64,000 bases of DNA from an uncultured Alphaproteobacteria bacterium (GCA_944393195.1 CALXZG010000003.1:35223-99222); one strand, 5' to 3'. Shown: positions 25,736 to 56,194, counted from the first letter of the stretch. Numbers and translations are program-made. The notes: generated by a model not told the origin, from the letters alone.

Positions 25736-26143
25736 ATGAAGCGTTTGAAATTGATGATGTTAATGGGGCTTTGCTTGTTGGGATTGAGTGCTTGCGGCGG
25801 CGGGCAGAAAGTCTTTTATTGGGAGCGTCCGAACACGGGGGCCGTTTGGTTTGCCCGGGATCACAATTATTGCATCGGGGAGGCCGATTATTGGCCGTTT
25901 ACATGGCCGGGGTTGCCTTGGGGATGGGGGGCTCCGCCGGAATTGAATTTACGATTTGACAATGACTCCGATCATGGGGTGTGGGCACAATTCGTGCCGA
26001 TGCCGGGGGCTCAACCGGTGTATGTCAATACGACGGTTGGAGACTGGTCGGTATCATACAGTGATTATGAGGCGTGTATGGAGGCTCGGGATTACGTTCA
26101 ACGGAAACCGGCAACGCAAAACAGGCAGGTCTTTTATCAATAG
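25736..26143 (+). CDS. Hypothetical lipoprotein
   Basis: 135 aa with lipobox LGLSAC. Trp-rich. Confidence 0.65.
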   Translation: MKRLKLMMLMGLCLLGLSACGGGQKVFYWERPNTGAVWFARDHNYCIGEADYWPFTWPGLPWGWGAPPELNLRFDNDSDHGVWAQFVPMPGAQPVYVNTTVGDWSVSYSDYEACMEARDYVQRKPATQNRQVFYQ

Positions 26144-26159
26144 AGATGAAATCTGACAA

Positions 26160-38420: not shown

Positions 38421-38567
38421 ATGCGTCAAAACAGTGAAAAAAAGCATACGATTTTAAAAATTTTAGCCGTCATCGGTGTCGGGTTTTTAATTTTTGTTGC
38501 CGTGGCCGATTTTGCGCCGGAGCAGACACCGGTGGAAAAGGCAATTGCGTATGGCGATATTCAATAG
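38421..38567 (+). CDS. Candidate 48-aa single-TM protein
   Basis: AAGGAG lies 6 nt upstream of the ATG. Sequence is MRQNSEKKHTILKILAVIGVGFLIFVAVADFAPEQTPVEKAIAYGDIQ. It overlaps the next start by 17 nt and is below the track length cutoff. Confidence 0.45.
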   Translation: MRQNSEKKHTILKILAVIGVGFLIFVAVADFAPEQTPVEKAIAYGDIQ

Positions 38568-40062
38568 AATCGGTTGGTGTGTCGTCATCGCGGGGTTATT
38601 TATCGGACGCTTGGGAAATGCGACTGTCCGGATGGATGACTTACCCGATTTAGCTGTCGACGGAATTGGGGTAACGACGGTTTTTCCGGCCTCTATTTGG
38701 CAGGGGGGCGGAACGATATCGGATTTAACCGAACAGGTTCGGGGCGCCGGTAGGTTATCTTTATTGCCGGCCGAACGGGAGATTTTGCGGCAATTGATTA
38801 TGACGGACACCAGTGCCGAGCCGGCTTTGGTGGGCGGGGACGGTTCTTTTTGGACAGCTCGGGCAGATGCGTTGATGGCGCAGGGGTTGTTTGAAGATGT
38901 GATTGAATTGGTTGATCAGGTGCCGGTTGAACAACAGACGCCGGTTATGAAACAGCGTCGGTCGGCGGCGTTGTTCGGTGCCGGTCGGATAACGGAAGCG
39001 TGTGCCGAAAAGACGATGGCGGTTTGGGAGGATCGGGAAAATGCCGTACGGGCCGCGTGTGTCTTTTATCAGGGATCGCGGGAGGCCGCTGCTTTGGCGT
39101 TCGATGTTTATCGGGAAGGCGGATCGGATGATGTGTGGATGACGGCCGCGGGCAGTCGGTTGTTTTTGGGGCGCGGGGAGCAGCCGGCGGATGAGCCGGA
39201 TCTGTGGGCGGTCGGGTTGGCTGCGGCGGCTTTCGGCGTGGATGGTATGGAGGGATGGTCCCGCGGATTGTTGCGGGCAGCAGCATTGAATCCGCAAGTG
39301 CCGGTAGATGTGCGTTTGGCGGCAGCCGAAAAAGGAGCTTTGCAAGCGAAAGATTGGCAAACCGTTTTAGAGGCGGTTGCAACGGCGGATAAAGCCGATC
39401 ATTCGAAAAAGGTATCAGAAGTTCGGGAACGGGCGCGATTGTATCAGGCGGCCGTTGCGGCTTCGGACAAGAAACGGTTTGAAGCCGTTCGGGATTTATT
39501 GGCGGCTTTGCGAAAGGCCGGGGTTATGGAAGCTTGGGCACCGGTTGTGTCGCCGTTGGCTATTTCCGTTGAGGTGCAATCGGAACGGGCGGACACGGCT
39601 GCGGATATGATTGTGGCGTGCACTTGGGCGAACGAATTAACGGCGGCACATGCCTGGTATGTTGTATTGTCGGAAAAAGATGCCGTGGCGGCTTTGCGGT
39701 TATCTGGTGTATTAAATGCAATGGGGGCCGGGGTTCCAAAATCGATTGATCCGTTGATTCGGGCGTGTGTGGCGGCGGGGAATTGTGCGGAAGCGTTGCG
39801 CGGTATTCCGTTTTATTTTCCGGCTTCACCGGCTATGGCGGTGCAGGTACCGTCGATTCAGGGGGGGTATCCGGGGTTCGTGACGGGGGCCGTGTGGCAG
39901 CAAATAGCGGATGGCGCGGTCGGTGCAGGGTTATTAAACGGTTTGGGTTTATTGAGTCGGTCGGCGGCGGTTGAGCGGCCGTTGGTTGAAACGATCATGA
40001 AGGCGGTACCGCGCGGAATGGGGGAAGCCGTATTGCGGGAGCGATTGTTGCGTGGCCTATAA
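38551..40062 (+). CDS. Hypothetical Ala-rich exported/anchored protein
   Basis: Start placed at MAIFNRIGWCVVIAGLFIGRLGNA, a hydrophobic N-terminus. About 503 aa with no motif I recognise. It occupies the slot between aroK and xerD. Confidence 0.6.
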   Translation: MAIFNRIGWCVVIAGLFIGRLGNATVRMDDLPDLAVDGIGVTTVFPASIWQGGGTISDLTEQVRGAGRLSLLPAEREILRQLIMTDTSAEPALVGGDGSFWTARADALMAQGLFEDVIELVDQVPVEQQTPVMKQRRSAALFGAGRITEACAEKTMAVWEDRENAVRAACVFYQGSREAAALAFDVYREGGSDDVWMTAAGSRLFLGRGEQPADEPDLWAVGLAAAAFGVDGMEGWSRGLLRAAALNPQVPVDVRLAAAEKGALQAKDWQTVLEAVATADKADHSKKVSEVRERARLYQAAVAASDKKRFEAVRDLLAALRKAGVMEAWAPVVSPLAISVEVQSERADTAADMIVACTWANELTAAHAWYVVLSEKDAVAALRLSGVLNAMGAGVPKSIDPLIRACVAAGNCAEALRGIPFYFPASPAMAVQVPSIQGGYPGFVTGAVWQQIADGAVGAGLLNGLGLLSRSAAVERPLVETIMKAVPRGMGEAVLRERLLRGL

Positions 40063-40975
40063 TCCCGATAAATATATTGATTCCTTTTTGGAAATGATTG
40101 TGGCCGAGCGGGGGGCTTCGCCGCGGACGGTTGTATCGTATCGGCGGGATTTGGATGATTTAAGTGCGTATTTACGAAAAAATCAAAAAATAACGTTGGT
40201 GCGAGCCAAGCATGATCATTTAAAGAATTATTTGCGGCAGTTGGCGGCGCAGAATTTAACGGTTAAGACACAGGCACGACGGTTGTCGGCTATCCGCGAA
40301 TTTTACCGATTTTTATTTTCGGAAAATATCGTTGTTTCCAATCCGTCGGATTATTTATTATCGCCGAAGTTAAATAAGCCGCTGCCTAAATATTTGACGG
40401 AAGAGGAAGTGGTTCGGTTGTTGGAAACGGCCCGTCGGGAAAACAAGCGTATGTACACAATGTTGGAAGTGTTATATGCGACGGGAATGCGTGTCAGTGA
40501 ATTGGTTGAATTGCCGGTATTGGCGTTGACACGGGATTATCGAACCTTGACCGTTATCGGTAAGGGGAATAAGGAACGACTTGTGCCGTTGAATGAGCCG
40601 GCGGCTCGGGCTTTGTCGGATTGGTTGACGGAGCGGGAAAAAGACCTGCCCCCCGGGCGTGTGAGCAAGTGGCTTTTTCCGTCGGCATCTCGAACAGGAC
40701 ATCTGACACGAGATGGATTTTTCAAGCATTTAAAGCAGGTGGCTTTGTTGGCGGGGATTCCGCCGGAACGGGTATCACCCCATGTTTTTCGGCATTCTTT
40801 TGCAAGTCATTTAATTGCGCATGATGCGGATTTGCGGTCGGTGCAAAAGTTATTGGGGCATGCGGACATTGCAACAACGGAGATTTACACGCATGTTTTA
40901 GCGGATCGGTTGAAAAAGGTAGTTGAAAAATCTCATCCTTTAGCGTATAGTAAGGGCAAAGGAATGAATAGATGA
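40052..40975 (+). CDS. xerD: Site-specific tyrosine recombinase XerD
   Basis: 307 aa with RR...LSAIREFYRFL, ATGMRVSEL and HVFRHSFASHL...LLGHADIATTEIYTHV motifs. Confidence 0.9.
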   Translation: MAYNPDKYIDSFLEMIVAERGASPRTVVSYRRDLDDLSAYLRKNQKITLVRAKHDHLKNYLRQLAAQNLTVKTQARRLSAIREFYRFLFSENIVVSNPSDYLLSPKLNKPLPKYLTEEEVVRLLETARRENKRMYTMLEVLYATGMRVSELVELPVLALTRDYRTLTVIGKGNKERLVPLNEPAARALSDWLTEREKDLPPGRVSKWLFPSASRTGHLTRDGFFKHLKQVALLAGIPPERVSPHVFRHSFASHLIAHDADLRSVQKLLGHADIATTEIYTHVLADRLKKVVEKSHPLAYSKGKGMNR

Positions 40976-43900
40976 CGATTTTGGACAAATATATCTTAAA
41001 GCAGATATTGGTCGGGTTTGCCCTTGTGTTAATCAGCATGACGGTGTTGGTCTGGTTAACGCAATCGTTACGCATGATTGACATGATTGTGACAAAAGGG
41101 GTTTCGGTCGGTGTTTTTGTGCGTATGACGATTTTGGTATTGCCGAATTTTATGCAGATTTTGTCGCCAATTGCTTTGTTTGCCGTGACATTATTTACGT
41201 TTATTCGCATGCAGTCGGACAAAGAAGTGATGGTGATGCAGGCCGTGGGGATGAGCACGGGGCAAATTATGCGGGCGCCTTTGATTTTGGCAGGTATATT
41301 GGCCGCCGCGGGGTATTTGTTTTCGATTTTCGTCATTCCGGCGGCAAACACGGATTTACGGGAATTGCAATGGAAAATTCGGAATGATTTGTCCCATTTG
41401 TTATTACAGGAAGGGCAATTTAATTCGTTTAAGAACGGGTTGACTTTGTATGTTCGGGAGCGAACGCCGGACGGTAATGTCAAAGGCGTATTCGCGTATG
41501 AGGCCAAAGGGAAAGGGCAGAATCAGGTTTCTATCTTGGCGGCGGAATCCGGTACTGTTTTTCAGGAACCGGCGGGTGTGCGTGTTGTTTTTAATGCCGG
41601 TGCGCGGCATGAATATAATCCGGAGACCAAGCAGTTTTCTATTTTAAAATTTGACAAGTACACGATGTCTTTTGCCGATAAAAATCAAAGCACGGGAACG
41701 CGGCGGGCGGATGTGCGCGAGTTGTCTTTGCGGCAGTTATGGGCGGCAGAACCGACAGATGCGGCGAATATGGCTCAGTACCGTAAGCATAAAGTGGAAT
41801 TAGCCAAGCGATTGTTGCAGCCGTTGTATAATTTCACGTTTGTCTTTTTGGCGATGTTTGGGATTTTATCCGGATATTACAGTCGGCGGGGACAAGCCGG
41901 GCGAATTAACTTTGTTGTCGGGGCAGCCTTAATCGTGCAATCGTTGGCGCTTGCTTTTGAAAATATGGCCGGTAAAAATTTATGGTTTTTAATCCTTGTT
42001 TTTTTGAATGTTTGGATTCCGATGGTTATTACAGGGTGGGCTTTATTTCGGTCACGGAAAAAGAAGCGGAAAGCACCGAAGTGGTTCTTTTGGGCGACGA
42101 TTCTGATCATCGGTGCGGTCAGTTGTCCGGCGCGGGCTTTGGTTGCGTTGAATGATGTTTCTTTTGATAAAGATATGCCGGTTGATTTTGAAGCGGATCA
42201 GGTGTCTTATAATCAGGCCGCGAATGAGGTAGAAGCGCATGGCAATGTTGTTTTGCGGCAGAATGGGACGACGGTAACGACGGAAGAGATTCGGTTTAAT
42301 CGGAACAGTAATCAGATTTTTGCGCCGAACGCGGTGCGGATGGCGATGCCGGACGGGACGACGGCCGAGACGGAGGGCGTCGTTTTGTCGGGAGGCATGA
42401 CGGATATGTCAACGGGTCCGATGCGCGCCCGATTATATGAGGGGACTCGGTTAGCGGCGGATCGGATGAAGCGGACGCAGGACGGAAATCGGGTTTATTT
42501 ACGGGAGGCAACGTATACGCCGTGTGACACGTGTGGGGATGAGGCACCTTTGTGGCGATTGCGGGCGAAGAATTTAAAGCATGATAAAGCAGCGCAGGAA
42601 ATTGTATTTAAGCATGTTTTTTTAGATGTAAAAGATGTACCGGTTTTATATCTGCCGTATTTACAGATGCCGGATTTTACGATTAAGCGTAAGACGGGAT
42701 TTTTGCCGCCGAGTTTGGCGAGTGGGACGGAGATGAAAGGCGGAATTGAGCTGCCTTTGTTTGTTAATGTGGCGGACAATCAGAATTTAACGATAACGCC
42801 GGTTGTTTCCCCGTCACATTTTCCGTTGTTGTTGGCTGATTATCAGGGGATCTATGACCGAGGGGCTTTTAATTTACAGGTGAGCGGAACGCGGGATAAA
42901 GACGACGAGCATAATCAAGCGCATATTAAGGCCGACTTTCGATATGATATGACGGATCATTGGCGGATGAGTGGGCAATTGTTCCGAGTGGCGACGGATA
43001 CTTATTTCCGTAAGTATCGGATTCCGGGCATTGATGATTCGCAATCTTTTTTAACGTCGGATATTAAAGCAGAACGGTTTGGCAATCGCAGTTATTTTAA
43101 AGTTCAGGGATATTCGTTTCAAAGTTTGCAGGATAATGTGGATTCCAAATCGATTCCCGTTATTTTGCCGGTGATGGATTATCAATACAATACAGCGCCT
43201 TTGACAGATTTCGGGATGTATGCTTTTACCCGTGTGAATGCGGCTTTAATCAACACACGGCAGCATTTCAAATCCAATCGGTTGTCGGTGACGCAGGGAA
43301 TCAGCGCGCCGTGGGTGACCCCGATCGGGTTATCTGTCCGAACGACGGCTTCCGTTCGGGCGGACGGATATGCGGTGGATACGGGGCGGTATGCCTTTGC
43401 CGATCGACGAACAGAGGATAATTACACGGCCGGTCGGATTTATCCGAATGTGGCGGTTGAAATGTCCTATCCGATGTTTTCGGCGGGTAAGCGAACTATG
43501 CAGGTGTTGGAGCCGATTGTGATGGTTGTCGCCGCGCCGAACGGTGGAAATAATGATAAAATTCCGAATGTGGACAGTTTAGTCTTTGATTTCGATGATA
43601 CAAACTTATTTTCGGCCAATCGGTTCGCGGGGTATGATCGGGTCGAGCCGGGAACACGGGTCAACTATGGGGTTAAATGGTCGTTGTTCAGTCATCAGAG
43701 TAATCGGTCTTTGTCAGCCTTGTTTGGTCAGAGCTATCGGTTTAACGATAATGCAATGATGACGGAGTTAATGGGGTATAACCCGCACTTTTCCGATTAT
43801 GTCGGGCGCGTTCAGATTCAGAATCAGTATTTAGCTTTGGCATATCGGTTCCGGTTGGATCAGGCCGATTTTTCCATGAAAAAAAGCGAGGTGTCTTTGT

Positions 43901-44226
43901 CCGGCGGGACGGATCCTTTGCGGTTGGGAATTGATTATGTTTATTTAAATTCGTATCAAATCAGTGATAATTATTACCCGACGCGGGAGGAGGTTGTTTT
44001 TTACGGGAGCAGCAAGTTGACGAAAAGTTGGTCTTTGTCGGGGTATTACCGGTATGATTTGTCGGGGGACGGCGGACCGATTGAATCGGGTGGGGCTTTA
44101 CGGTATGACAATGAATGTTTGGCTTTGGTGTTTGAATTGGACAAGTCCTTTACGCGGGACCGCGATTATGAGGGCGGAACGTCGTTTATGTTGAAAGTTA
44201 TTTTAAAAACATTAGGGGGAGAGTAA
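40972..44226 (+). CDS. Single ORF encoding an LptF/LptG-family permease (aa 1-about 360) joined in frame to LptD (aa about 390-1084)
   Basis: The N-terminus MTILDKYILKQILVGF... has 6 TM helices of YjgP/YjgQ type. Next come RSRKKKRKAPK and WFFWATILIIGAVSCPARA, which looks like a signal peptide. An OstA-like N-domain follows (PVDFEADQVSYNQAANEVEAHGNVVL), then a large barrel. No stop and no in-frame ATG/GTG/TTG occurs at the junction (42049-42138). Confidence 0.8.
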   Translation: MTILDKYILKQILVGFALVLISMTVLVWLTQSLRMIDMIVTKGVSVGVFVRMTILVLPNFMQILSPIALFAVTLFTFIRMQSDKEVMVMQAVGMSTGQIMRAPLILAGILAAAGYLFSIFVIPAANTDLRELQWKIRNDLSHLLLQEGQFNSFKNGLTLYVRERTPDGNVKGVFAYEAKGKGQNQVSILAAESGTVFQEPAGVRVVFNAGARHEYNPETKQFSILKFDKYTMSFADKNQSTGTRRADVRELSLRQLWAAEPTDAANMAQYRKHKVELAKRLLQPLYNFTFVFLAMFGILSGYYSRRGQAGRINFVVGAALIVQSLALAFENMAGKNLWFLILVFLNVWIPMVITGWALFRSRKKKRKAPKWFFWATILIIGAVSCPARALVALNDVSFDKDMPVDFEADQVSYNQAANEVEAHGNVVLRQNGTTVTTEEIRFNRNSNQIFAPNAVRMAMPDGTTAETEGVVLSGGMTDMSTGPMRARLYEGTRLAADRMKRTQDGNRVYLREATYTPCDTCGDEAPLWRLRAKNLKHDKAAQEIVFKHVFLDVKDVPVLYLPYLQMPDFTIKRKTGFLPPSLASGTEMKGGIELPLFVNVADNQNLTITPVVSPSHFPLLLADYQGIYDRGAFNLQVSGTRDKDDEHNQAHIKADFRYDMTDHWRMSGQLFRVATDTYFRKYRIPGIDDSQSFLTSDIKAERFGNRSYFKVQGYSFQSLQDNVDSKSIPVILPVMDYQYNTAPLTDFGMYAFTRVNAALINTRQHFKSNRLSVTQGISAPWVTPIGLSVRTTASVRADGYAVDTGRYAFADRRTEDNYTAGRIYPNVAVEMSYPMFSAGKRTMQVLEPIVMVVAAPNGGNNDKIPNVDSLVFDFDDTNLFSANRFAGYDRVEPGTRVNYGVKWSLFSHQSNRSLSALFGQSYRFNDNAMMTELMGYNPHFSDYVGRVQIQNQYLALAYRFRLDQADFSMKKSEVSLSGGTDPLRLGIDYVYLNSYQISDNYYPTREEVVFYGSSKLTKSWSLSGYYRYDLSGDGGPIESGGALRYDNECLALVFELDKSFTRDRDYEGGTSFMLKVILKTLGGE

Positions 44227-45409: not shown

Positions 45410-46261
45410 ATGGGGGCGAAAATCATTGATGGAAAAGCTTTGGCTGCCGAAATACGGCAGGCTTTGGCGACGCAGGTGGCGGGATTTGAACGGGCGCCGC
45501 GGTTGGCGGTTATTTTAGTTGGAGATGATCCGGCAAGTCAGGTTTATGTTCGGCATAAAACGGCGGCTGCGGCCGAGGTCGGAATTCAATCGGAAACGTA
45601 TCAATTGTCGCCGGTCATGACGCAGGATGCTTTGATTTCTTTTATTGTCGAATTAAATGAAAATCCCGATGTGGATGCGATTTTGGTACAATTACCGTTG
45701 CCGCCCCACATGAATGCGGCCGCGGTATTGGATGCCATTCATCCCGACAAAGATGCCGATGGGTTGACCAGTCGTAATTTAGGAAAATTGTTTGCCGGTT
45801 ATCCGGCGATTAAGCCGTGTACACCCTTGGCTTGTTTGGCTTTGATTAAAAGTGTCATGCCGGATACGGAGGGGGCGAACGCGGTCATTGTAGGACGATC
45901 CCGCTTGGTGGGAAAACCTTTGGCACAGTTATTATTGGAAGCGCAATGTACGGTGACGCAGGCGCATTCACGGACACGGGATTTGGCCGATGTTTGTCGG
46001 CGGGCGGATATTTTGGTGGCGGCAACAGGGCGGCCGGGATTAATCACGGGCGATTTCATTAAGCCGGGTGCGGTTGTGATTGATGTTGGGATTAATCGGA
46101 CGGCGGCCGGTAAATTAACAGGGGATGTTGTTTTTGATGACGCCGTGAAAATCGCCGGCGCGATAACGCCTGTTCCCGGTGGCGTCGGACCGATGACGGT
46201 GACGATGTTGTTGCAGAATGTTGTTGATATCTTTTTGAAAAAAAAGCTTGCAGGTATTTAA
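45410..46261 (+). CDS. folD: Bifunctional methylenetetrahydrofolate dehydrogenase/cyclohydrolase
   Basis: 283 aa with motifs ILVGDDPASQVYV, ILVQLPLP, VIVGRSRLVGKP and TPVPGGVGPMT. Confidence 0.95.
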   Translation: MGAKIIDGKALAAEIRQALATQVAGFERAPRLAVILVGDDPASQVYVRHKTAAAAEVGIQSETYQLSPVMTQDALISFIVELNENPDVDAILVQLPLPPHMNAAAVLDAIHPDKDADGLTSRNLGKLFAGYPAIKPCTPLACLALIKSVMPDTEGANAVIVGRSRLVGKPLAQLLLEAQCTVTQAHSRTRDLADVCRRADILVAATGRPGLITGDFIKPGAVVIDVGINRTAAGKLTGDVVFDDAVKIAGAITPVPGGVGPMTVTMLLQNVVDIFLKKKLAGI

Positions 46262-46320
46262 GGTTGTGATATAATAAAATTAAGGGAACAGGAAAACGGA
46301 TTGAGCAGAGGAGGCATCCG

Positions 46321-47262
46321 ATGAAGGGAATGTTATCTAAATGGATTGTAATCGGCGTTATCGGTCTGATGAGTGCTAACTCCGTTTCGGCTCAGGAACT
46401 GGTGAGTTCTCTCAGTGAATATCCGAGTTTGATTGCGTTGGTATCGCAGGCGGGATCGGCTGTGTCGGCGTATGATACGTTGGTGGAAGCCGGTGTGACG
46501 ATGAATAACACATTGGGCGGGATTAACCGTTATGTGTCGCCGGTGTTGGGTGCGGCCGGTCGGATTGCCGGAGAAAATTACAGTTTGACCAGTAAAATGC
46601 CGACATCCGTAAAAGGGTTAATGTTGGCGAATATGTCGCCACAAGAAGCGTCGGACGCGATGACGGGGTTGTTAATCCTGGACAAGACAATGACATATAC
46701 GGATGATGCTTTGGCAAAAATTCGGGAAAACCGTGTTGAGGCCATCAATGATACGGCGATTACGTCTATGGCGTATGCTTTGGGAAATGAAGCGGCCATT
46801 AAAAAAGAACAGGAAACAGACGGGTTGGTGGCACAGGCCTTGGGAAATGCAACGGATATGCAGGCTTTGTTCCGGACGTTAACGGCGGTTGATCGGCAGA
46901 CGTTGGTCGTCAGCTTACAGAATTCGGCAATTGAATCAACATCGGCTTCCGTTAAGGCTATGCGAGCGTTAGACGGTGTTGAACAGTCGGCGGCTACAGC
47001 AGCGGAAGAAGCGGCCGAAGGGGAGTCTTTATTGGATAATGTGGCTTCCGGTTTAGGGGCAGCGGATGACGCGGCGGCGGCAGGATTAGGTTTATTGAGT
47101 GATACGATGAAAGGGGTTTCCAGCGGTGTCGGAAATGCGGTAAAGGGGACTCAAAACGCGGTCAGCAGCGGTTCAAAGGCGGCCACCGAATGGGTTGTGG
47201 ATGCTTTTAAATCGTCCGGTGATGATGGTCTGGCGGAAGCGGACAAAGGAGGGGCGTCATGA
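46321..47262 (+). CDS. T4SS-linked secreted protein A (unknown family)
   Basis: 313 aa, AGAGGAGG Shine-Dalgarno, signal peptide ...SANSVSA. The helical Ala/Gln-rich body has a Gly/Ala/Ser-rich tail. ATGA overlap with the next ORF. Confidence 0.75.
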   Translation: MKGMLSKWIVIGVIGLMSANSVSAQELVSSLSEYPSLIALVSQAGSAVSAYDTLVEAGVTMNNTLGGINRYVSPVLGAAGRIAGENYSLTSKMPTSVKGLMLANMSPQEASDAMTGLLILDKTMTYTDDALAKIRENRVEAINDTAITSMAYALGNEAAIKKEQETDGLVAQALGNATDMQALFRTLTAVDRQTLVVSLQNSAIESTSASVKAMRALDGVEQSAATAAEEAAEGESLLDNVASGLGAADDAAAAGLGLLSDTMKGVSSGVGNAVKGTQNAVSSGSKAATEWVVDAFKSSGDDGLAEADKGGAS

Positions 47263-47942
47263 AGAATATTTGGACATATTTAGCGGCGAGTATCGCGGTT
47301 GTCGGGTTTGTCGGCGCGGCGCATGCCATTCCGATTGTGAGTCCGCCGGAAACGATTGCAACGATTAAAGATTTGACGCAGAACGAAACGATCAAAGGAA
47401 TTTCCGATATGCATCAGGAATATCAGGATGCCAGCAATAATATCATGAAATTGCAGACGGCAGCCGGACAGTTAAAGCAATATACTTCGGTGAAGGATGC
47501 GTTATTGGGACGGTCGAATGTTTTATCCGGCGGTATGGGTGTTTTGGGAATTCAGTTAAACAATCCGATTAATGCGTTGTCGGATACGACATTGCGAAAC
47601 ATGGCGAATACGATTGCTTATCCGACGAGTGAGGATGCTCTGCAAAACATGGCGGATCAGGAGTTGCAACGGTTGGCTTGGAAGCAGGCGGAAATTGCGG
47701 GAGATTTAGCGGTTGAAGGAATTGCCCGGGCGTGGATGACGCAGACGGAAGCGTCGGCCAAAAGTCAGGCATTGAGTGAGTATGGGAAAGAAGTAGATAA
47801 TGCGAAGACGCAGTCGGATGTTTTGTTGTCGTTGATTCGAATCAGTTCGGAAATTACGTCCGATATGAACACGCGGGTTATTGTGACATCCGGCGGGGTG
47901 GCAACGGGTAGTGCGGCTGTGTTGCGGGACATTAAGATATAG
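47259..47942 (+). CDS. T4SS-linked secreted protein B (possibly VirB5/TrbJ-like)
   Basis: 227 aa with signal peptide ...VGAAHA. The mature N-terminus is IPIVSPPETIATIKDLTQ..., followed by Gln-rich helices. Size and layout resemble minor-pilin VirB5/TrbJ proteins, by eye only. Confidence 0.7.
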   Translation: MKNIWTYLAASIAVVGFVGAAHAIPIVSPPETIATIKDLTQNETIKGISDMHQEYQDASNNIMKLQTAAGQLKQYTSVKDALLGRSNVLSGGMGVLGIQLNNPINALSDTTLRNMANTIAYPTSEDALQNMADQELQRLAWKQAEIAGDLAVEGIARAWMTQTEASAKSQALSEYGKEVDNAKTQSDVLLSLIRISSEITSDMNTRVIVTSGGVATGSAAVLRDIKI

Positions 47943-47958
47943 AGAGGAGGCGAGCGCG

Positions 47959-49695
47959 ATGAAAATGGTATCAAAAGCAATAGCGTTGATGTGTTTGGCG
48001 GTTGTCGCGCCGGCTTCGGCCAAGGTGACAATCGGGCCGATCAGTTTGGGAATTGAGGTTGCTAATACGGCAGAAACGCTTGGGCAGATTGAACAATTCA
48101 ATACGGTTATGTCGTACAAGAATTCGGTTTGTGAAGTTTTGGGGGCCGGATTATGTGATGCCGTGGTCAATCAAATTGCGGCGTGTACAAAGGCCGCGGT
48201 TAGTAATATGGGTAATATTGATGCCTTGCGGGAAGGAGCGGCGCAAGAGGCTTTTGTCCAAGCGGCACAGGGATGTGCGGGCGATTTATGGATTACGGAT
48301 TGTTTAAACGCGACGACGGGGTCTTTGACCGATTTAAAACGGAAGACGGATACGTTGTCGACACAGCCGGAAAATTTACAGCGTATTGCCGAACGGCAGA
48401 TTGTGGATCCCCTCAGTGGTGAAACAATCAGTGCTAAAATCACATCGGTTCAACGGGCGGAAAGCAGTTTAGAGTCGGGATATGATTTATTAACCGGTAA
48501 TGGTGCGCAAACGGCATTAGGGGCGAGTGCGTTATCTGCTTTGCGTAATGCGACCGCCGAGACAAGTAATATGAAAATGTTGCAGGCTTGTTCACAGGAT
48601 GCGTTGAATGCGACGGAGTGGGTGCCGGCGATCAGTGTGCCGAGTCCGATGGATTTGGCGCCGTCCGTACCGTCTTCGGTTCAGGAGATTTTGACGGCGA
48701 CGAAAGAGGGGGCCGAGGATTTGTTATCGAAGGCCAGTGCCGCCAAGGATAAAGCCGTGGATTACACCAAAGCGACACGGACGTATCAGGCGATGCGCAG
48801 CGGATATGAGGCGGCGAATGACGGTATGTCCTTATATTTAGAAGGGGCAAATGCGGCGAATCAGCTGGACCGTAATTTAACGGGGTTGAGTGGATTACGA
48901 CCCGAGGTCAGTCGGAGTTTCGTGTCAAGTGGTAAACAGGGTGTGTTGCAGACGGCCGATTCGATTGATGCTTTGACAGATGTAGCGGGTAAGGCGTATG
49001 AGCGGTTTGGCGGTTCGACGTATATTGATCCGTTATTGGATAAGGCCGGAGATGCCACTCAGTCGTATGTGGATGGGGCAAAGGATATGGCCTCCGGAGC
49101 TTGGGATTCTATCAGTGGCAGCGGTGTCGGGCAGAGTGTCGGCGGCGCTTTAGGGGCTGTGTCCGATGGCGCAAAAAGTGTGTGGGGCGGTATCGGTACC
49201 GGCGTCGATGCGACAAATGCGGGGATTGATGCCGTCGGCGGTGCCGTTACGGATGCCGGTGGGGCGGTCAGTGATACCGTCAATGATGCGACGGCGGCGA
49301 CGGCCCAGTTTATGGATGACAAAATGACGGCCTTACAGAACAAAATTACCGGATTGATGAAGGCGGGTGCTGATACATCGATTGAGATGGTTCGTAAAAA
49401 TCAGAATGACATGCAGATTAATTCCAATTCGAACGGTATCGGTGGCGGGCAAAGGGCTTCGGCTTTGGTTACCCAAAACGGGGCCAAAGAGTTTGAGCAA
49501 TTGTCGGATGGTGCCAGTTCAGCCGAAGATATTATGAATTTGTTGAAGCAAATTGCATTGGTTCGGGTACAGGCGTTACAGAAAAATACGGCCATTACGT
49601 CGTTAAAGTCTCAGATTGCCGAACAGGATGCAATTGACAGTGTGATTGTCAATGGTGTGATTGATCAATTCGGGACGGATGAAACGGAGGGGTAA
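47959..49695 (+). CDS. T4SS-linked secreted protein C (unknown family)
   Basis: Start placed at MKMVSKAIALMCLAVVAPASA behind a GAGGAGG Shine-Dalgarno. About 578 aa with a Cys-containing N-domain, a long Gly/Ala/Ser/Asp low-complexity middle and a coiled C-terminus. Confidence 0.75.
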   Translation: MKMVSKAIALMCLAVVAPASAKVTIGPISLGIEVANTAETLGQIEQFNTVMSYKNSVCEVLGAGLCDAVVNQIAACTKAAVSNMGNIDALREGAAQEAFVQAAQGCAGDLWITDCLNATTGSLTDLKRKTDTLSTQPENLQRIAERQIVDPLSGETISAKITSVQRAESSLESGYDLLTGNGAQTALGASALSALRNATAETSNMKMLQACSQDALNATEWVPAISVPSPMDLAPSVPSSVQEILTATKEGAEDLLSKASAAKDKAVDYTKATRTYQAMRSGYEAANDGMSLYLEGANAANQLDRNLTGLSGLRPEVSRSFVSSGKQGVLQTADSIDALTDVAGKAYERFGGSTYIDPLLDKAGDATQSYVDGAKDMASGAWDSISGSGVGQSVGGALGAVSDGAKSVWGGIGTGVDATNAGIDAVGGAVTDAGGAVSDTVNDATAATAQFMDDKMTALQNKITGLMKAGADTSIEMVRKNQNDMQINSNSNGIGGGQRASALVTQNGAKEFEQLSDGASSAEDIMNLLKQIALVRVQALQKNTAITSLKSQIAEQDAIDSVIVNGVIDQFGTDETEG

Positions 49696-49696
49696 G

Positions 49697-50371
49697 ATGA
49701 TGAAATCGATGATTGAAAAGATTTGTGTCGGGCTTATTCTGACGGGGATGGCGGTACCGGTGTCAGCTACTTTTGTGGTGGGCGATATCATGCGTGGTTT
49801 GGAAAAGACTTTGGAAGGCGTGGATCGGACGGTTCAATCGGTTAGCGAGCAGATGAAGAATCAGAATTTGGAAGAGCAGATTCAGACGTGGAGCGGGACG
49901 GTTGAGGTAACGACCAAGCCGTCATGGCAAATGTATGATTATTTATTAAAGACACCGTTTAATACGTTGCCGTCCAGTAAAATCGGCTTGGCACAAGAGG
50001 ATATGGCCGCGGCGCGGGAGTTTGTCAGATCAACGTTCTTTTTGCCGGCGGGGTCGGATCCGACGGATGCGGAGAAGGAAGCTATTTTAGCGTTGCGGCG
50101 GGAATATGTGTCGACGTTGGCTCAGGAGCAGACGACTTTGGCGACGGGTATTCGGGAGAATGTGGCGCAGGATTTAAAAAATACGCAGGAGGCCGAAGGG
50201 TCCGGTGGCGGTATTTTACAGGAAATTCAATTGGATACGCAGACAATGCGGTCGTTAACGATGTTGTCGGCGGCGAATGTGATTATGGGTATTAAAATGA
50301 TGGAGTTGGAGGCGGCTCAGATGTTATTGGACAAAGATGTCGTTTTAGAGACCGCTCCGACCGGTAAGTAG
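49697..50371 (+). CDS. T4SS-linked secreted protein D (possibly VirB5/TrbJ-like)
   Basis: Start placed at MMKSMIEKICVGLILTGMAVPVSA, 1 nt after the previous stop. Mature N-terminus TFVVGDIMRGLEKTLEG. About 224 aa, helical. Confidence 0.7.
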   Translation: MMKSMIEKICVGLILTGMAVPVSATFVVGDIMRGLEKTLEGVDRTVQSVSEQMKNQNLEEQIQTWSGTVEVTTKPSWQMYDYLLKTPFNTLPSSKIGLAQEDMAAAREFVRSTFFLPAGSDPTDAEKEAILALRREYVSTLAQEQTTLATGIRENVAQDLKNTQEAEGSGGGILQEIQLDTQTMRSLTMLSAANVIMGIKMMELEAAQMLLDKDVVLETAPTGK

Positions 50372-50381
50372 GGAGGCAGAC

Positions 50382-51101
50382 ATGAAGACGATACGGACAA
50401 TAATAAATGGTTTGGTTGCGGTCGGAATGGTGTGTTTCATGTCTATGCCGGCTAAGGCCTTTTTGTTAATCGACTTTTTATTGGCGCCGGAACCGACGCC
50501 GGTAAGCGATCCGGTCAGTATTGCGCCACAGACGGTTGTGCAAGGTATTCAAAACGTCTTGTCGACGTATACGGCGGTTGAGCAGGAATTGCAGGGACAG
50601 TTACGAAACCTGCATTTTGAGCCGGAATTTATGGGAATTAAGTTAACGATTGAAGCCAATAATCAGATGGCGCCGATTGCCAAAGGATTATTGACGGCGG
50701 ATCCGTTGACGGAAAAGTATGCCGGGATGAGTGCGAAAGATTTGGCGGCGGATGCTCAGACTATTTTGACAACAGTATCGGGAACGATTGATTCTGTGAG
50801 CAATTATATGCAGACGCGCCGATATGAGGAGCAGGCTTCGGCAATTGAAATGTTGGCGGCGGTTTTGGTTTTTAAAAGCGGAACCGAGCAAGTTCAGGAC
50901 ATGTTGCGTAAATTTGATATGGGAAAATATGAAACGGCGGAAAATTACAAGGCGGCTTTGGAAGGAAATTTGGCGGTCAGCACGGTATACAATCAGATGT
51001 TGAGTTTGGAACAGCAAGTGACGGCGATGCGCTTAAATACGTTGAGTTCCCAGCGTATGATTACGGCTTCACCGATTTCCAAGGGATTATCCGGTCAGTA
51101 A
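50382..51101 (+). CDS. T4SS-linked secreted protein E (possibly VirB5/TrbJ-like)
   Basis: 239 aa with signal peptide ...SMPAKA. Helical and Gln/Leu-rich. GGGAGG Shine-Dalgarno. Confidence 0.7.
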   Translation: MKTIRTIINGLVAVGMVCFMSMPAKAFLLIDFLLAPEPTPVSDPVSIAPQTVVQGIQNVLSTYTAVEQELQGQLRNLHFEPEFMGIKLTIEANNQMAPIAKGLLTADPLTEKYAGMSAKDLAADAQTILTTVSGTIDSVSNYMQTRRYEEQASAIEMLAAVLVFKSGTEQVQDMLRKFDMGKYETAENYKAALEGNLAVSTVYNQMLSLEQQVTAMRLNTLSSQRMITASPISKGLSGQ

Positions 51102-51116
51102 AGGGGAGAAGAAAAG

Positions 51117-52721
51117 ATGCGTTCTGTTTATTTAGCGGCGATGATGTTAGTGGCAACGGGCATGGTAATGCCGGCTGCCGCTTTGGAATTTACGGTGGCT
51201 AAGCCGACGGTTGTTGCCAAGCCGATGACGTCGGTCGGTGTTGATGATACGGCTTTACAGAAAGCGTTGGCGGTTCACAATGCCATGAATGAGATGCGGA
51301 CGCTGTTGCAAAAGCAGAAAAATCAGGAGGTCATGCAGAAAAATTTAGAGCTGCAACAAAAAAAGATGAAGGCTATGCAGCAATGTAATATTAAGCGGTT
51401 GGCCAAGGATTTTAAAAATCCCGAAGATGTTTGGAAGAAAATGACGGATGAATATGATACGCGGGAACGGGATTTGGCGATTTACATTAATTCGGCCGAT
51501 GATATGACGGACGAACAGCGGGCGACATTGAAAGAGAATTTGGAAAACGGTTATTTTTCGGATGAGTCTTTGGCAGAGGTAATGGCGTATTGGGATATCG
51601 GCAACGATATTTTAACGGATGTATATGCGAATCAGGATAAATGGGGGGAGCGTCTGTCGCCGGATGCGGCGTCTTTACCGTTGTGGGAAGATCAGAAGTA
51701 TATCTTTGACAAAGAGTGGAATCAAAAGTATGAGGCAATCAACCTGTATTTCGGGGTACCGCCGAACGGACGGCCGCTTATCGGAGAAGAGCGATATGAC
51801 TATAAAAATACCGATCAATTACAAGCGGCGCATGATGCTTATTTAGCGGCTTTAACAGCCAAAAATCCGGTTAAAGCAGCGTTGATGCCGCCGGAAATGC
51901 GGGAAGCGATGGTGGCACCGAAGCCTTTGCCGCCCAAAGAAGAAAGTGTCATGTATATTGAAACGGATGATCCGGAAAAGCGGGTTTATCCGGCTTTACC
52001 GGAGCCATGGCGTCAGTATCAGGCCGATCATTTCCGGGACATTAATCCGAATGGGGAGATGGCATCGGATTTTAGTCGGGGGTTGGAGTTAAAGGATTCG
52101 GCTAAAAACCGGACATCGGCGGAGCAAAACAATCGATTGACGGTTTATCAGGCTTTGAAAAAAGAGTTGGACGGTGCGGAAAAAATGGATTTAGCCATGA
52201 AGCAGAGTGTGGATCAGACTGCCGCCTCCGTTCAACAAAAATTGATGAATAATTTGGATTTGTCGGGCGAGGTTGATTTGACGGATTCCAAGGCGGTTGA
52301 GGATGTTATGAATCGGTTACGGGCCGAAAAAGACAGGATGATTGCTTTGGCGGAAGCACAGTTGGCCGAGGAAGCCAAGTGGGAGGCTTTGGCATGGGAT
52401 CAATTGGCGGATAAACAACGGTTGGAATCTTCGTCGGCAATGGTTGAGCTGTCCAAGACAAATCCCGCGTATTATGAAAAGGTTAAGGATGTATTGGGGA
52501 CTTCTGTCGTGCAACGGAATCGTGAATTGTTGACGGCTTTAAAAAAGGATACGGAGGCTGTGGTTGCGATTACGCCGACAAACGCAAAGGATATTGATCG
52601 GAAAATCCGGGAAGCGCGGGCCGAAGAAGCGTTGTTACAGAAGCGGGACGAATGGGAGAAGGAGTTAGCGGCCGAGGAAGAACGTCCTATTGATGATTTA
52701 TGTATTAACGGGGGCGTATAA
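51117..52721 (+). CDS. T4SS-linked secreted coiled-coil protein F (unknown family)
   Basis: 534 aa with signal peptide ...MPAAA. Lys/Glu/Gln-rich coiled coils flank a Trp/Tyr/Pro-rich middle. Its 3' end overlaps the virB8-like ORF. Confidence 0.75.
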   Translation: MRSVYLAAMMLVATGMVMPAAALEFTVAKPTVVAKPMTSVGVDDTALQKALAVHNAMNEMRTLLQKQKNQEVMQKNLELQQKKMKAMQQCNIKRLAKDFKNPEDVWKKMTDEYDTRERDLAIYINSADDMTDEQRATLKENLENGYFSDESLAEVMAYWDIGNDILTDVYANQDKWGERLSPDAASLPLWEDQKYIFDKEWNQKYEAINLYFGVPPNGRPLIGEERYDYKNTDQLQAAHDAYLAALTAKNPVKAALMPPEMREAMVAPKPLPPKEESVMYIETDDPEKRVYPALPEPWRQYQADHFRDINPNGEMASDFSRGLELKDSAKNRTSAEQNNRLTVYQALKKELDGAEKMDLAMKQSVDQTAASVQQKLMNNLDLSGEVDLTDSKAVEDVMNRLRAEKDRMIALAEAQLAEEAKWEALAWDQLADKQRLESSSAMVELSKTNPAYYEKVKDVLGTSVVQRNRELLTALKKDTEAVVAITPTNAKDIDRKIREARAEEALLQKRDEWEKELAAEEERPIDDLCINGGV

Positions 52722-53343
52722 GGTGCGGCAATTTTCTTTACGTGAATTATCGTTGCGCGGGTGGTTGATTATCACGTCGGTGGTGATGGCGGTCAATATC
52801 TTTTTGGCATTGACATTGGTTCATTTTGCCCCCCAAATTCAGGTGGTGGCGCAGTTGTTTTCGCCGAATATTATGAATTTCGGGCAATTAACGGAAGCGA
52901 CGAGTTTTGACGGGCAGGTCAGTGACAAGCGGTTAATTGATGAGATGTTGGTTCGGTACTATGTTCGAATGCGAAATGATTTTATTCGAGATCAATATGA
53001 ATTATCGAACAGATGGGGGCCGTCGGGGCCGGTTGCACGGCTATCTTCGTTGAATGTGTATCAGGATTTTTGGGCGCAAAAAGGGGAGATGGAGGAATTA
53101 GCCAAAAAATATCCGGGAACGGCCGCGACATATATTACGTCGGTATCGCGTCTGGATAATATTTTTACCGTTGATTTTGATGTATATGAGTGGGTGAACG
53201 GCGGCGTGGCGCGTGTCAGTGGTCGCAGGGCCGTTATCCGGGTTTCGGACATACCGACGCGCCGTTCTTTTGCGACAGATATGGTTAATCCTTATGGGTT
53301 GACCGTCCTGCAATATACCGAAACAGAAAAAAAACGCGGATAA
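52690..53343 (+). CDS. VirB8-like protein, divergent paralog I
   Basis: Bitopic, with TM helix WLIITSVVMAVNIFLALTLVHF. Periplasmic part has LIDEMLVRYYVRMRNDF and a C-terminal NPYGLTVLQYTE (VirB8 NPLGF-type motif). The start could instead be the GTG at 52723, right after the upstream stop. Confidence 0.7.
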   Translation: MMIYVLTGAYKVRQFSLRELSLRGWLIITSVVMAVNIFLALTLVHFAPQIQVVAQLFSPNIMNFGQLTEATSFDGQVSDKRLIDEMLVRYYVRMRNDFIRDQYELSNRWGPSGPVARLSSLNVYQDFWAQKGEMEELAKKYPGTAATYITSVSRLDNIFTVDFDVYEWVNGGVARVSGRRAVIRVSDIPTRRSFATDMVNPYGLTVLQYTETEKKRG

Positions 53344-53427: not shown

Positions 53428-53604
53428 ATGACAAAATATTTGGCCATTATTTTGGGTGTTAGTGCTTTGATTTTAGCGGCTTGCGGGTCGGTTTATGAAA
53501 AAGAAACCGTCGGTATCGGGCCGGATTATTCCGAACTGAAAAAATCGCCGTGTGCTTGTTTGCAATTGGAAAAAGCGCCGGCTTTGCCTGTTTGGTTTTC
53601 GTAA
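53428..53604 (+). CDS. Small lipoprotein, VirB7-position candidate (58 aa)
   Basis: MTKYLAIILGVSALILAACGS... has a lipobox LAAC. GAGGAAGAGGAA lies upstream. It sits between the two virB8 genes, as virB7 does in rvh loci (order recalled from memory). Below the track length cutoff. Confidence 0.6.
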   Translation: MTKYLAIILGVSALILAACGSVYEKETVGIGPDYSELKKSPCACLQLEKAPALPVWFS

Positions 53605-53625: not shown

Positions 53626-54357
53626 ATGGACGTCCGTCAGCAAGACCAGCGTGCGGGGATTTCTGCTTCCGGGGTAGGTCCGGAGGAGGTATCGCCGGAA
53701 GCACAACGTGAACGCAGTTATTTGTGGATGTCACGTGTTTTCGGGCTTGTCAGTATGGCAGCGTTGATTGCCAATTTAATCTTAATTGTGGCTGTATTTT
53801 CTTTGCTACCGATTGTTCGGGTGCAACCGTTTTATGTTTCCACGCAGGATAAAGATCAGCAGATTATTACGATACAGCGACCGGCACCGGAAGTTTTATC
53901 GTCTAAGGAGTTGCAGGAATCTTTTGTTCGGCAGTATTTGGTTGCGCGGTTGGGTATCGGGTCGGATGTCAATGAATTGGAACGCCGATGGGGCAATGAC
54001 GGTTTGGTGCAATGGATGAGCGGCGAGGCGGTGTTCAATGAGTTTTTACGAACGGCACCGGCGTTGGTGGCTCAGGCACAGCAGGAAGGCTTGACGCGGA
54101 ATGTTCGCATTTTAAATGCGTCGACGTATCCGGTGCAGGGCGGCGGTATTGTGTGGCAGGCCGAGGTTGAGTTGGTGGATATGAAGTTGGACATGAAAGA
54201 GCTGGTTAAAACAAAATGGGCTGTTTTGCTTGAAATCAGGTTCGGACAATTGCGAGAAGGATTGCGTTGGGATCAGCGTTTGAAGAATCCGCTCGGGTTT
54301 TCCGTAGTGCGGTTTAGTATGCGGGCTTTGGACGGGGAAGGAGCGGATGGTGCATAA
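53626..54357 (+). CDS. virB8: VirB8, paralog II
   Basis: 243 aa with a cytoplasmic N-terminus and TM helix VFGLVSMAALIANLILIVAVFSLL. Motifs FVRQYLVAR and C-terminal KNPLGFSVVRF. Confidence 0.85.
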   Translation: MDVRQQDQRAGISASGVGPEEVSPEAQRERSYLWMSRVFGLVSMAALIANLILIVAVFSLLPIVRVQPFYVSTQDKDQQIITIQRPAPEVLSSKELQESFVRQYLVARLGIGSDVNELERRWGNDGLVQWMSGEAVFNEFLRTAPALVAQAQQEGLTRNVRILNASTYPVQGGGIVWQAEVELVDMKLDMKELVKTKWAVLLEIRFGQLREGLRWDQRLKNPLGFSVVRFSMRALDGEGADGA

Positions 54358-54451: not shown

Positions 54452-56194
54452 ATGGGAATGAAAAAAACGCAAAAAATGCACTGGTTGGGTGCCATCAGTT
54501 TGGCGGTTTTGACGGCGGTTTCTGCGCAGGCGCAGCAAATGTTGCCGACGGATACGGAAGCGGCTCAGTTGGAGGATGCCATTGCCCAAACGACGGGTGA
54601 GTTTGATCAGGTTAATTTAGGGTATATTCACTCGCTCGGCATGCAGCAAAAAGCGTGGAATGACCCGTTGTCTCATATGGGAGAAGGACAATTAAAGCCG
54701 GGGTATTCGCGGTATAATTGGTCCCCGGATGTTATTTTGCCGATCCGCCTGCGGGAAGGGATGATGACGCTTATCAACCTGCCGGCTTGGGAATTGATTG
54801 AAAAAGTGCATATCGGATCTCCGGAATCTTTCGGTGGTGAAGTGGCGGCGCCGAATTCTCTCCTCTTGTATCCCGATCCGGCTTATATCGGTGTTGACTG
54901 TAACATGATTGTATTCGGGCGTTCCGGTAACCGGTATGTTTTCTATCTGCGGAGTGAAACGTATAATACGGACAAAATCACGCAATCCGTTGTGGATGTG
55001 TTGGTCGGGCCGCGGTATACACCGGCTTCGGCAGGGGGGAACCTCGGAAATTTTAATGGTGCCACGGCGACGGCGGCGGCGACTTCCGGCTATGGATCTT
55101 CTGCGCCGGGTTGGTCGGCTCGTGGCAATTTGACGCCGGGCGGATCACAAAATCCGCAAATCGGGTTGAATACGGCTTCGACGGGGCCAAAAAATTGGCT
55201 GGGGAGTATTCCGGTTGATCCGGAACAGTTCCGGTTTGATATTGAGATGTATTTGCCGAACCCGGAGGATGTAGATATCGCGCCGGATAATGTATGGCGG
55301 GACAATATTTTTACCTATATTGATTTAGGGCCGAAAGCTTTGACGATGACGCAACGGCCGGTTGTTAATTTAATTGTGCAAGATTCCGAAGTACCGGTCG
55401 GTTTCCGGACGCGGGGACCGAACAGCCGTTTAATTGTTGTTGAGGCGGTTGGTGATTTGGTGTTGCGCAACGGTAAAAAGATTATTTGTTTGAAGTTGCG
55501 TCGGGATCCGGCTTCGGGCTTGGAATTTGTGGATTACAGCGGTTCGAACGAACAGACGGGTAATTGGAATGCGCCGGCGGTACCGGATAATTATCCGCAG
55601 GGCGGAGCGACCGGTGCGACAGATCCGGCACCGGCCCCGGTTGATACGGATGCTATGTTAATGCGTAAGCAGCCGGTTATGACGATGGACGGCGAAGTGA
55701 TTACGACGGAAGCGGTTGTTGACGGTTGCACGGAAGAATGTCCGGATACGGATGCGTATGAGGTCATGATGCAACAGGAAAAAGTCGAAGTGATGGCACC
55801 GTTACCGACAATTCCGACGGCTGTGCGGTATTCTCCGACAGCCAATGCGGGAATTACGGGTGTGATTAACCAGATCATGACGCAACCGGCCGCGGCGCCT
55901 AAGGCTCCTGTCAACAGGGCGGCGACGGCGGTATCGGAAACGATTTCCGTTGAGTTGGGATCCAATGCAAATATTGCCGATTTGGAAAAAACGTGGAATG
56001 AAATCGTGGCACAAAACGGTGATATTTTAAAGGGGTATGAGCCGTATTATTCTGTTGATACAACGGCGGACGGTGATGTGCGGGAGTTGTTCCGGTTGCG
56101 CGTCGGGCCGATGGCCGATGTAAAGACAGGTGATGCTTTGTGCCGGAAATTAGGACGGCGGGGCGTATCTTGTTCCGTTATTCGGGTACAGTAA
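54452..56194 (+). CDS. virB9: VirB9/TrbG-family protein with a Gly/Ala-rich linker and a C-terminal SPOR-like domain
   Basis: 580 aa with signal peptide ...AVSAQA. The N-domain has PIRLREGMMTLINLPAWELIEKVHIGS...NMIVFGRSGNRYVFYL. The C-domain has FTYIDLG...RLIVVEAVGDLVLRNGKKIICL. The last 84 aa or so are ISVELGS...FRLRVGPMADVKTGDALCRKLGRRGVSCSVIRVQ. Confidence 0.85.
   Translation: MGMKKTQKMHWLGAISLAVLTAVSAQAQQMLPTDTEAAQLEDAIAQTTGEFDQVNLGYIHSLGMQQKAWNDPLSHMGEGQLKPGYSRYNWSPDVILPIRLREGMMTLINLPAWELIEKVHIGSPESFGGEVAAPNSLLLYPDPAYIGVDCNMIVFGRSGNRYVFYLRSETYNTDKITQSVVDVLVGPRYTPASAGGNLGNFNGATATAAATSGYGSSAPGWSARGNLTPGGSQNPQIGLNTASTGPKNWLGSIPVDPEQFRFDIEMYLPNPEDVDIAPDNVWRDNIFTYIDLGPKALTMTQRPVVNLIVQDSEVPVGFRTRGPNSRLIVVEAVGDLVLRNGKKIICLKLRRDPASGLEFVDYSGSNEQTGNWNAPAVPDNYPQGGATGATDPAPAPVDTDAMLMRKQPVMTMDGEVITTEAVVDGCTEECPDTDAYEVMMQQEKVEVMAPLPTIPTAVRYSPTANAGITGVINQIMTQPAAAPKAPVNRAATAVSETISVELGSNANIADLEKTWNEIVAQNGDILKGYEPYYSVDTTADGDVRELFRLRVGPMADVKTGDALCRKLGRRGVSCSVIRVQ

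Follow-up and report, generated by a model that had tools for sequence, protein, structure and literature searches.

What are the six proteins with export signals that an uncultured alphaproteobacterium encodes directly in front of its type IV secretion system (T4SS) genes, and do they belong to the secretion machine? This question is raised by a 64,000-nucleotide (nt) stretch from an uncultured Alphaproteobacteria bacterium (GCA_944393195.1 CALXZG010000003.1:35223-99222), referred to here as the window, with positions counted from its first letter. In it, six tightly packed open reading frames (ORFs), A to F, lie on the + strand between folD (45410-46261) and a VirB8-like gene. The products of the block are probably structural components, exported by Sec, of a chromosomal, rvh-like T4SS; A–E would be ancient, position-conserved VirB5 paralogs that are used jointly, and F a clade-specific component. 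VirB5 is a known stalk and pilus-tip subunit of T4SSs and also acts as an adhesin.

Organization of the gene block

The six ORFs are arranged as follows (lengths in amino acids, aa).

46321-47262, + strand: ORF A, 313 aa; signal peptide, VirB5-like helical core at about 27-235, low-complexity Ala/Gly/Ser/Asp tail
47259-47942, + strand: ORF B, 227 aa; signal peptide, IPIVSP at the mature N-terminus, VirB5-like
47959-49695, + strand: ORF C, 578 aa from ATG (the mechanical ORF opens at GTG 47911); VirB5-like core, split by an insertion
49697-50371, + strand: ORF D, 224 aa; signal peptide, mature N-terminus TFVVGD, VirB5-like
50382-51101, + strand: ORF E, 239 aa; signal peptide, short extension and then a PVSDP motif
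51117-52721, + strand: ORF F, 534 aa; signal peptide, all-helical

The preliminary description of this DNA had proposed six ORFs at these positions, and they are confirmed, among others by an independent gene call for the same sequence in the public assembly (313, 227, 578, 223, 239 and 534 aa, with the start of D one codon later). Since they are conserved, with 51 homologs of F and all six positions kept in relatives, A–F are real genes and not chance ORFs. A and B overlap by 4 nt (ATGA), the spacers B/C, C/D, D/E and E/F measure 16, 1, 10 and 15 nt, and the 3' end of F overlaps the VirB8-like gene (VirB8a) by 29-32 nt, as had been noted before. A Shine-Dalgarno site of the GGAG/GGAGG type precedes all six starts. 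The overlaps and short gaps suggest that the block may be translationally coupled.

A candidate promoter of the block lies in the 59-nt gap after folD.

46267..46275, + strand: extended -10-like TGATATAAT, 45 nt upstream of the A start

This element was read by eye; it has no -35 match, and so the consensus promoter scan left it unflagged. Scans of the block found no terminator-like excess, no DNA tandem repeat and no Rfam match inside it.

By inspection, all six N-termini show one or two basic residues, then a run of hydrophobic residues and, for cleavage, a site of the AxA type. The predicted sites for A to F are VSA/Q, AHA/I, ASA/K, VSA/T, AKA/F and AAA/L, with the slash marking the cut. 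A Kyte-Doolittle scan (19 residues at 1.6 or above) found no second hydrophobic segment in A–F. The earlier claims of a clear signal peptide on each ORF, and of no further transmembrane helices, are thus upheld.

All six proteins are rich in Ala, Ser, Leu, Gly, Thr, Gln and Glu. Only two regions are genuinely of low complexity: the C-terminal end of A (about 220-313) and, in C, an inserted segment of about 390 aa. The suggestion that all six are low-complexity proteins is therefore correct for these two regions and wrong for F, which has conserved motifs and 25 invariant residues. The insertion in C is lineage-specific and includes Gly/Ala/Ser/Asp-rich stretches; it divides a core made of residues 1-60 and 454-564, and the orthologs of C elsewhere are mostly 165-350 aa long. 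It was also observed that lineage-specific Gly/Val/Ser/Asp-rich repeat insertions (e.g. SGAVDSVTGSVSNTIGGVVGGV) sit in different paralogs from one genome to another: in the window, for example, within the central part of C and at the C-terminal end of A, and in the related locus L016 (7464-8756), after the signal peptide of D.

Relationship of A–E to one another

The preliminary description had treated the six ORFs as one kind. This has to be revised, as F is unrelated to A–E, and the paralogy among A–E had been missed. An all-versus-all BLASTP of the window proteins does not reveal it either; it appears with profiles only. The profiles were built from ortholog alignments defined by position, with non-iterated searches. 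Iterated hidden Markov model (HMM) searches, in which the A–D families merged, were set aside for possible drift.

With signal peptides included, hhalign gave probabilities of 97.9% for A-B, 96.3% for B-C, 96.1% for B-D, 96.5% for B-E and 96.8% for C-D, while the controls F, VirB8 and VirB9 stayed at 25% or below. After the signal peptides were cut, the values were 96.5% (A-B), 81.7% (C-D), 74.6% (A-D) and 69.5% (B-D). On fresh alignments of the mature regions, A-B reached 97.4%, B-D 95.8%, C-D 96.4% (198 columns) and E-B 95.8%; E-D reached 80.4%, over the N-terminal motif and the first helix. Without iteration, HMMs built from A and from B orthologs match B, C and D orthologs at other positions, with E values from 3e-11 to 5e-4. 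The five proteins are mutually less than 20% identical, E being the most diverged and D the best conserved. Judged by these profiles, A–E form a single family of ancient paralogs.

Relationship of A–E to VirB5

The family was compared with a reference set of 12 annotated plasmid VirB5 genes (canonical VirB5). The B family matched it at 96.8% (191 columns) with signal peptides and at 81% (168 columns) without them; a separate hhalign run gave 76.7%. The D family reached 30%, yet its alignment is collinear from the mature N-terminus.

A second reference was provided by three alphaproteobacterial plasmid T4SSs, to which the VirB11 of the window is closest (about 40% identity). Each encodes a single protein of 251-273 aa after VirB4. 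These three proteins, referred to as the plasmid VirB5 trio, carry IPVID, IPTID or VPVLD after the signal peptide and match canonical VirB5 at 85%; the Erythrobacter member clears the PF07996 gathering score (30.3 against 24.7 bits). Against this trio, the D family scored 95.2% (E 2.5e-8, 116 columns), the A family 94.1% (E 1.3e-7, 112 columns) and the B family 79.7%. As a control, F scored 0.2% against the trio and 0.2-1.3% across the VirB5 comparisons.

The N-terminal motif points the same way. The VirB5 consensus is GIPVfD; the B family has IPV/VPV..D, the D family F/I/C-P-V-x-D, and the E family PV.D after a short extension. Three of the families, B, D and E, thus share with VirB5 a ΦPVxD motif at the start of the mature protein or close to it; in the family alignments of A and C the motif is not evident.

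Structural comparison gives a further hint. Among the sequences of the PDB, the D-family profile has TrwJ, the plasmid R388 VirB5, as its top match (E 0.033), in an alignment that spans the signal peptide and the first residues beyond it, and TrwJ ranks third for the B-family profile; these weak TrwJ matches rest partly on the signal peptide. The AlphaFold model of D, made from a 78-sequence alignment, has a mean predicted local distance difference test (pLDDT) score of 88.6 and long helices at 31-66, 124-165 and 173-212, with a small appendage between the first and the second. TraC has been described as three long helices plus an appendage (PMC2653234), and the predicted secondary structure of D fits this description.

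Taken over the family, homology of A–E to VirB5 is likely. The earlier view that the proteins belong to no known family holds for direct searches and gives way, for A–E, under profile-profile comparison. Likewise, the proposal of periplasmic or surface structural parts is supported for A–E as diverged VirB5 homologs, with F outside this link, and the idea of a pilus substitute or a new family has to be dropped for A–E.

Conservation of the block in related genomes

A scan of one genome per species gave 40 related loci, nearly all titled as uncultured Alphaproteobacteria metagenome-assembled genomes (MAGs) from rabbit and human gut, the rumen and further gut sites of ruminants. The 51 homologs of F carry no Pfam domain, and their names are uninformative. 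For the D family, an exhaustive search found 74 representatives in 1.84 billion proteins, where word-indexed searches gave 5-7. Wherever a source is named, the members of both families come from the same clade.

On contigs of sufficient length, the genes follow the order LptFG-LptD fusion, SurA, FolD, small secreted proteins, F, VirB8a, VirB7, VirB8b, VirB9, VirB10. The order FolD, five genes, F and VirB8 is kept in most of the roughly 30 MAG loci that cover it. Exactly five genes lie between folD and F in 24 loci; in a few loci there are six, owing to a split gene or an additional copy, or fewer were detected. It had been suggested earlier that co-occurrence with the vir genes be checked, and the outcome is strongly positive, the block standing beside the vir genes across the related loci.

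This synteny also bears on the idea that the block is envelope housekeeping, which merely adjoins the vir genes downstream of the LptFG-LptD fusion, surA and folD. The upstream genes on the same strand do serve envelope biogenesis, and the whole order from LptFGD through SurA, FolD and the block to the vir genes is syntenic. However, A–F match no housekeeping family in Pfam or NCBIfam, a test proposed in the preliminary description; the families are very narrow (the 51 and 74 members given above, among billions of proteins); the VirB5 links stand; and F physically overlaps VirB8a. We regard such an origin as most improbable.

Rates of change within the locus

The genes of the locus differ widely in identity to the same relatives. 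A–E show 25-40%, and F and VirB8a 24-48%; the values are 58-65% for FolD, 43-77% for VirB8b, 60-79% for VirB9 and 63-84% for VirB7. In the closest MAG, VirB9 is 98% and VirB11 99% identical, while D, E, F and VirB8a are just 73-81% identical. As these identities are far below those of VirB7, VirB8b, VirB9 and VirB11, A–F and VirB8a form a fast-evolving module within a conserved machine.

Such variability could mean that the VirB5 homologs A–E are used as alternatives, in a repertoire of tip adhesins exchanged according to the host or target surface, which has been proposed for the multiple TrwJ copies of Bartonella. A–E are the fastest-evolving genes of the locus, with lineage-specific insertions located in the appendage or the tail, and the Trw system is known to have several variable copies of VirB5 and VirB2 (PMC12857230). 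A repertoire would, however, predict recent duplications and a shifting copy number. Here the copies are old, positionally orthologous across the clade and less than 20% identical to one another, their number is nearly fixed at five, and all are packed into a single operon-like array with short junctions. Alternate use is thus unlikely. Joint use of A–E is favoured instead, because all five are kept in almost every relative at fixed positions in spite of their low mutual identity.

ORF F, a conserved family next to VirB8a

The F family is well conserved. Its 25 invariant residues and sharp motifs include C90, W106, Y170, G177, a LWEDQK stretch, PRPLPP and C529, with C90 and C529 being the two invariant cysteines. 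The model of F is all-helical (pLDDT 84.6, predicted template modelling score 0.73), and no counterpart was found for it in the PDB, either by fold (best Foldseek E 0.22) or by sequence profile. By these comparisons, F is a conserved orphan family without known relatives.

Kinship of F with A–E, with VirB5 or with the hydrophilic proteins of about 430 aa at the VirB6 position of plasmids was considered and rejected, as profile comparisons show none. The latter proteins are an observation in themselves. In the three plasmid T4SSs closest by VirB11 (L124 10050-11333, L126 5526-6791 and L127 5497-6855), the VirB6 position is taken by a hydrophilic Ala/Gln/Glu-rich protein of 422-453 aa that has no Pfam match and, in two of the three, no obvious signal peptide.

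In the related loci, F always immediately precedes VirB8a, which it overlaps or abuts, and it is probably co-translated with this divergent VirB8. Its position, its overlap and its similar rate of change suggest that F may be a clade-specific periplasmic subunit tied to VirB8a.

Could the six proteins be the cargo instead of the machine? They would then be Sec-dependent T4SS substrates exported in two steps, in the manner of pertussis toxin. Indeed, the genes of six proteins with signal peptides stand immediately upstream of the T4SS genes, with which they probably share a transcript. Moreover, in the nearest relative (L054), VirB11 is followed by no VirD4 and instead by a pilin-like ORF and then rplT, secF, secD and yajC; the Ptl system is likewise without VirD4 and VirB5 (PMC12857230). 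Against this stand the homology of A–E to VirB5, with the same N-terminal motif in B, D and E and a three-helix fold predicted for D, and the lack of any toxin, enzyme or AB5-type domain in Pfam and NCBIfam searches, the models of D and F being all-helical. F is also more conserved than A–E, as expected for a machine part, and VirD4 may lie elsewhere in the genome, as in the scattered rvh loci. The cargo explanation is therefore improbable.

A possible stalk built from several VirB5 paralogs

The stalk tip is a VirB5 homopentamer in the one system solved at high resolution. In R388, the stalk consists of a VirB5 pentamer on a VirB6 pentamer (PMC9259494), and VirB5 is thought to start pilus growth and to end up at the tip (PMC12857230). 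On the favoured reading of the block as structural T4SS parts, each protein would cross the inner membrane by the Sec pathway and lose its signal peptide. The exposed ΦPVxD N-terminus and the three-helix bundle would then assemble on the stalk. A–E would act together, most simply as a mixed pentamer, and not as interchangeable variants. The appendage region and the low-complexity insertions would form the outward-facing, fast-evolving part, and F would be a clade-specific periplasmic helical subunit that co-evolves with the divergent VirB8a. A more specific version is offered tentatively: the stalk tip could be made of five dedicated, anciently diverged VirB5 paralogs, one per position, as a counterpart to the five VirB6 paralogs known from Rickettsiales, with F as a new periplasmic partner of VirB8a, and this would be an asymmetric, subfunctionalised stalk of an rvh-like machine outside Rickettsiales.

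Several points weigh against reading the block in this way. Direct searches of A–F in Pfam and NCBIfam returned sub-threshold noise only, and neither A–E nor 25 D-family and 24 B-family members matched PF07996 or the VirB5 NCBIfam families, for A–E even at E up to 1. On the PF07996 scale, TrwJ scores 122.9 bits and the closest plasmid VirB5 proteins score 30.3, 16 and 12.6 bits, at a cut-off of 24.7. The E family reached 0.6% with canonical VirB5, and E (62.2% against the plasmid VirB5 trio) and C (21.5% against it) are linked to VirB5 only via their paralogs. Removal of the signal peptides lowered several of the probabilities, and profile scores in general are inflated by helical, compositionally biased proteins. 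By Foldseek, the D model has nothing significant in the PDB (best E 1.3); CagL appears five times in the list (E 2.6-5.3), with TraC and TrwJ outside the top 50. The sole argument for a mixed pentamer is the count of five. Finally, VirB2, VirB3, VirB4, VirB6 and VirD4 were not found upstream in the window or past VirB11 in L054, and the platform on which the proteins would assemble is thus unseen.

Comparison with known systems

The VirB5/TraC/TrwJ family (PF07996) resembles A–E in size (about 220-270 aa), Sec signal peptide and placement in a virB-type cluster, as well as in the ΦPVxD mature N-terminus of B, D and E and the three long helices with an appendage predicted for D. It differs in that there are five ancient paralogs here and not one gene, none of them passes the Pfam threshold, some carry large insertions or tails, and the genes lie upstream of VirB8 and not between VirB4 and VirB6.

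Another parallel is the Trw system of Bartonella, with several tandem VirB5 homologs in one T4SS locus and fast sequence change. The Trw copies were amplified together with neighbouring trw genes, and their number varies between species. The five genes described here, in contrast, have diverged deeply, keep orthologous positions throughout the clade and occur in a fixed number, with no VirB6 or VirB7 duplicated alongside. In Bartonella, the copies of both TrwJ (VirB5) and TrwL (VirB2) are multiple and variable in sequence (PMC12857230).

The closest likeness in gene order is that to rvh. The main rvh islet of Rickettsia typhi reads VirB8-VirB7-VirB8-VirB9-VirB10-VirB11, with one fast-evolving and one conserved VirB8 (PMC4676284). 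The locus in the window is likewise chromosomal, split from other vir genes and in the same order, and its VirB8a evolves faster than its VirB8b. However, rvh reportedly has no VirB5 but five VirB6 paralogs (PMC2653234), whereas five VirB5-like genes are found here. A duplicated VirB4, a duplicated VirB9 and a VirD4 after VirB11 are further traits of rvh; in the present locus, no second VirB9 is seen upstream, and no VirD4 lies downstream in L054. The NPXG motif, which RvhB8-II has lost (PMC4676284), is retained here in VirB8a (NPYG) as well as VirB8b (NPLG). The host, too, is different, being a gut MAG lineage labelled only Alphaproteobacteria.

In Helicobacter pylori, the secreted helical protein CagL is an analogue of VirB5, its gene neighbouring those of other secreted accessory proteins (CagI and CagH), and the Cag system shares with this locus a CagX-like VirB9 and a giant repeat-bearing, CagY-like VirB10. 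There is, however, no significant sequence or fold match to CagL, and the gene order differs. The ptx-ptl locus of Bordetella also encodes five Sec-dependent proteins directly upstream of a T4SS without an adjacent VirD4. The pertussis toxin subunits are beta-rich or enzymatic, whereas A–E are helical and VirB5-like, with no toxin domain found.

Neighbouring genes

The block runs straight into a cluster with the order VirB8-VirB7-VirB8-VirB9-VirB10-VirB11.

52693..53343, + strand: VirB8a, fast-evolving VirB8 paralog; Pfam VirB8 32.9 bits, NPYG motif, start overlapping the end of F
53428..53604, + strand: VirB7-like lipoprotein, 58 aa, lipobox LAAC; found in 35 related loci
53626..54357, + strand: VirB8b, conserved VirB8 paralog; Pfam VirB8 51.9 bits, NPLG motif
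54452..56194, + strand: VirB9/CagX-like protein with a C-terminal SPOR domain
56231..63070, + strand: giant VirB10, 2279 aa; beta-flower repeats, then a TrbI/VirB10 domain
63092..64000, + strand: VirB11 ATPase, cut by the window end

The SPOR (peptidoglycan-binding) domain of the VirB9/CagX-like protein scores E 7.7e-4, just under the Pfam cut-off. In VirB10, at least 12 beta-flower (Bflower_2) repeats and a DUF3659 domain stand ahead of the TrbI domain. The VirB10 of the closest MAG (L054 1446-9275) is 2609 aa long although VirB11 is 99% identical, which suggests variation in repeat number. Directly after VirB11 in that locus, just past the point at which the window ends, lies a 514-aa ORF (L054 10547-12091, + strand) with a type-IV-pilin-like N-terminus (GRSMVEILGVLAVVGVL), long Thr-Glu repeats, a Cys-rich C-terminal part and no Pfam match.

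The window is chromosomal, with the housekeeping genes mla, bamA, skp, lpxD/A/I/B, nrdD, pnp, surA and folD; bamA, skp and the lpx genes are some 20 kb further upstream of the LptFG-LptD fusion, surA and folD. The fusion is one ORF of 1084 aa (40972-44226, + strand) that joins an LptF/LptG permease (6-360), an LptC/LptA-like part (403-486) and an LptD barrel (658-1020). The independent gene call agrees on it, and it has one match per related locus. Such a polypeptide would bridge the inner to the outer membrane for lipopolysaccharide in a single chain.

Elsewhere in the window, a 908-aa protein (5111-7837, - strand) carries repeats of the Chlamydia polymorphic-membrane-protein type and may be an autotransporter-type adhesin. 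A 522-aa Ala-rich ORF (38494-40062, + strand) upstream of a XerC/D-type recombinase gene has no family match and no homolog detected in the related loci. A very strong positive GC skew (0.25-0.35) extends over long + strand gene runs, at 8000-28000 and 38000-64000.

Implications

VirB5 is hard to recognise and has been reported missing from the rvh, F, Ptl and ComB T4SSs; in a 2026 preprint, TraH is reportedly put forward as the F-plasmid VirB5. The parts of the present locus are already known in kind, namely VirB5 and an rvh-like T4SS. Five ancient VirB5 paralogs together with an orphan, in a gut lineage outside the named Rickettsiales, were not found in the literature searched.

A whole clade of animal- and human-gut Alphaproteobacteria thus carries a chromosomal rvh-like T4SS, in which five old paralogs appear to divide the VirB5 function among them, with a conserved orphan subunit encoded alongside. 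If the five do assemble together, this would be a natural heteromeric pentameric stalk tip, and it would provide a concrete reason for the five-fold duplication of VirB6 in Rickettsiales. The locus also marks a fast-evolving, probably surface-exposed part of the secretion machine in abundant uncultured gut bacteria, the possible targets of this machine being host cells, protists or other bacteria.

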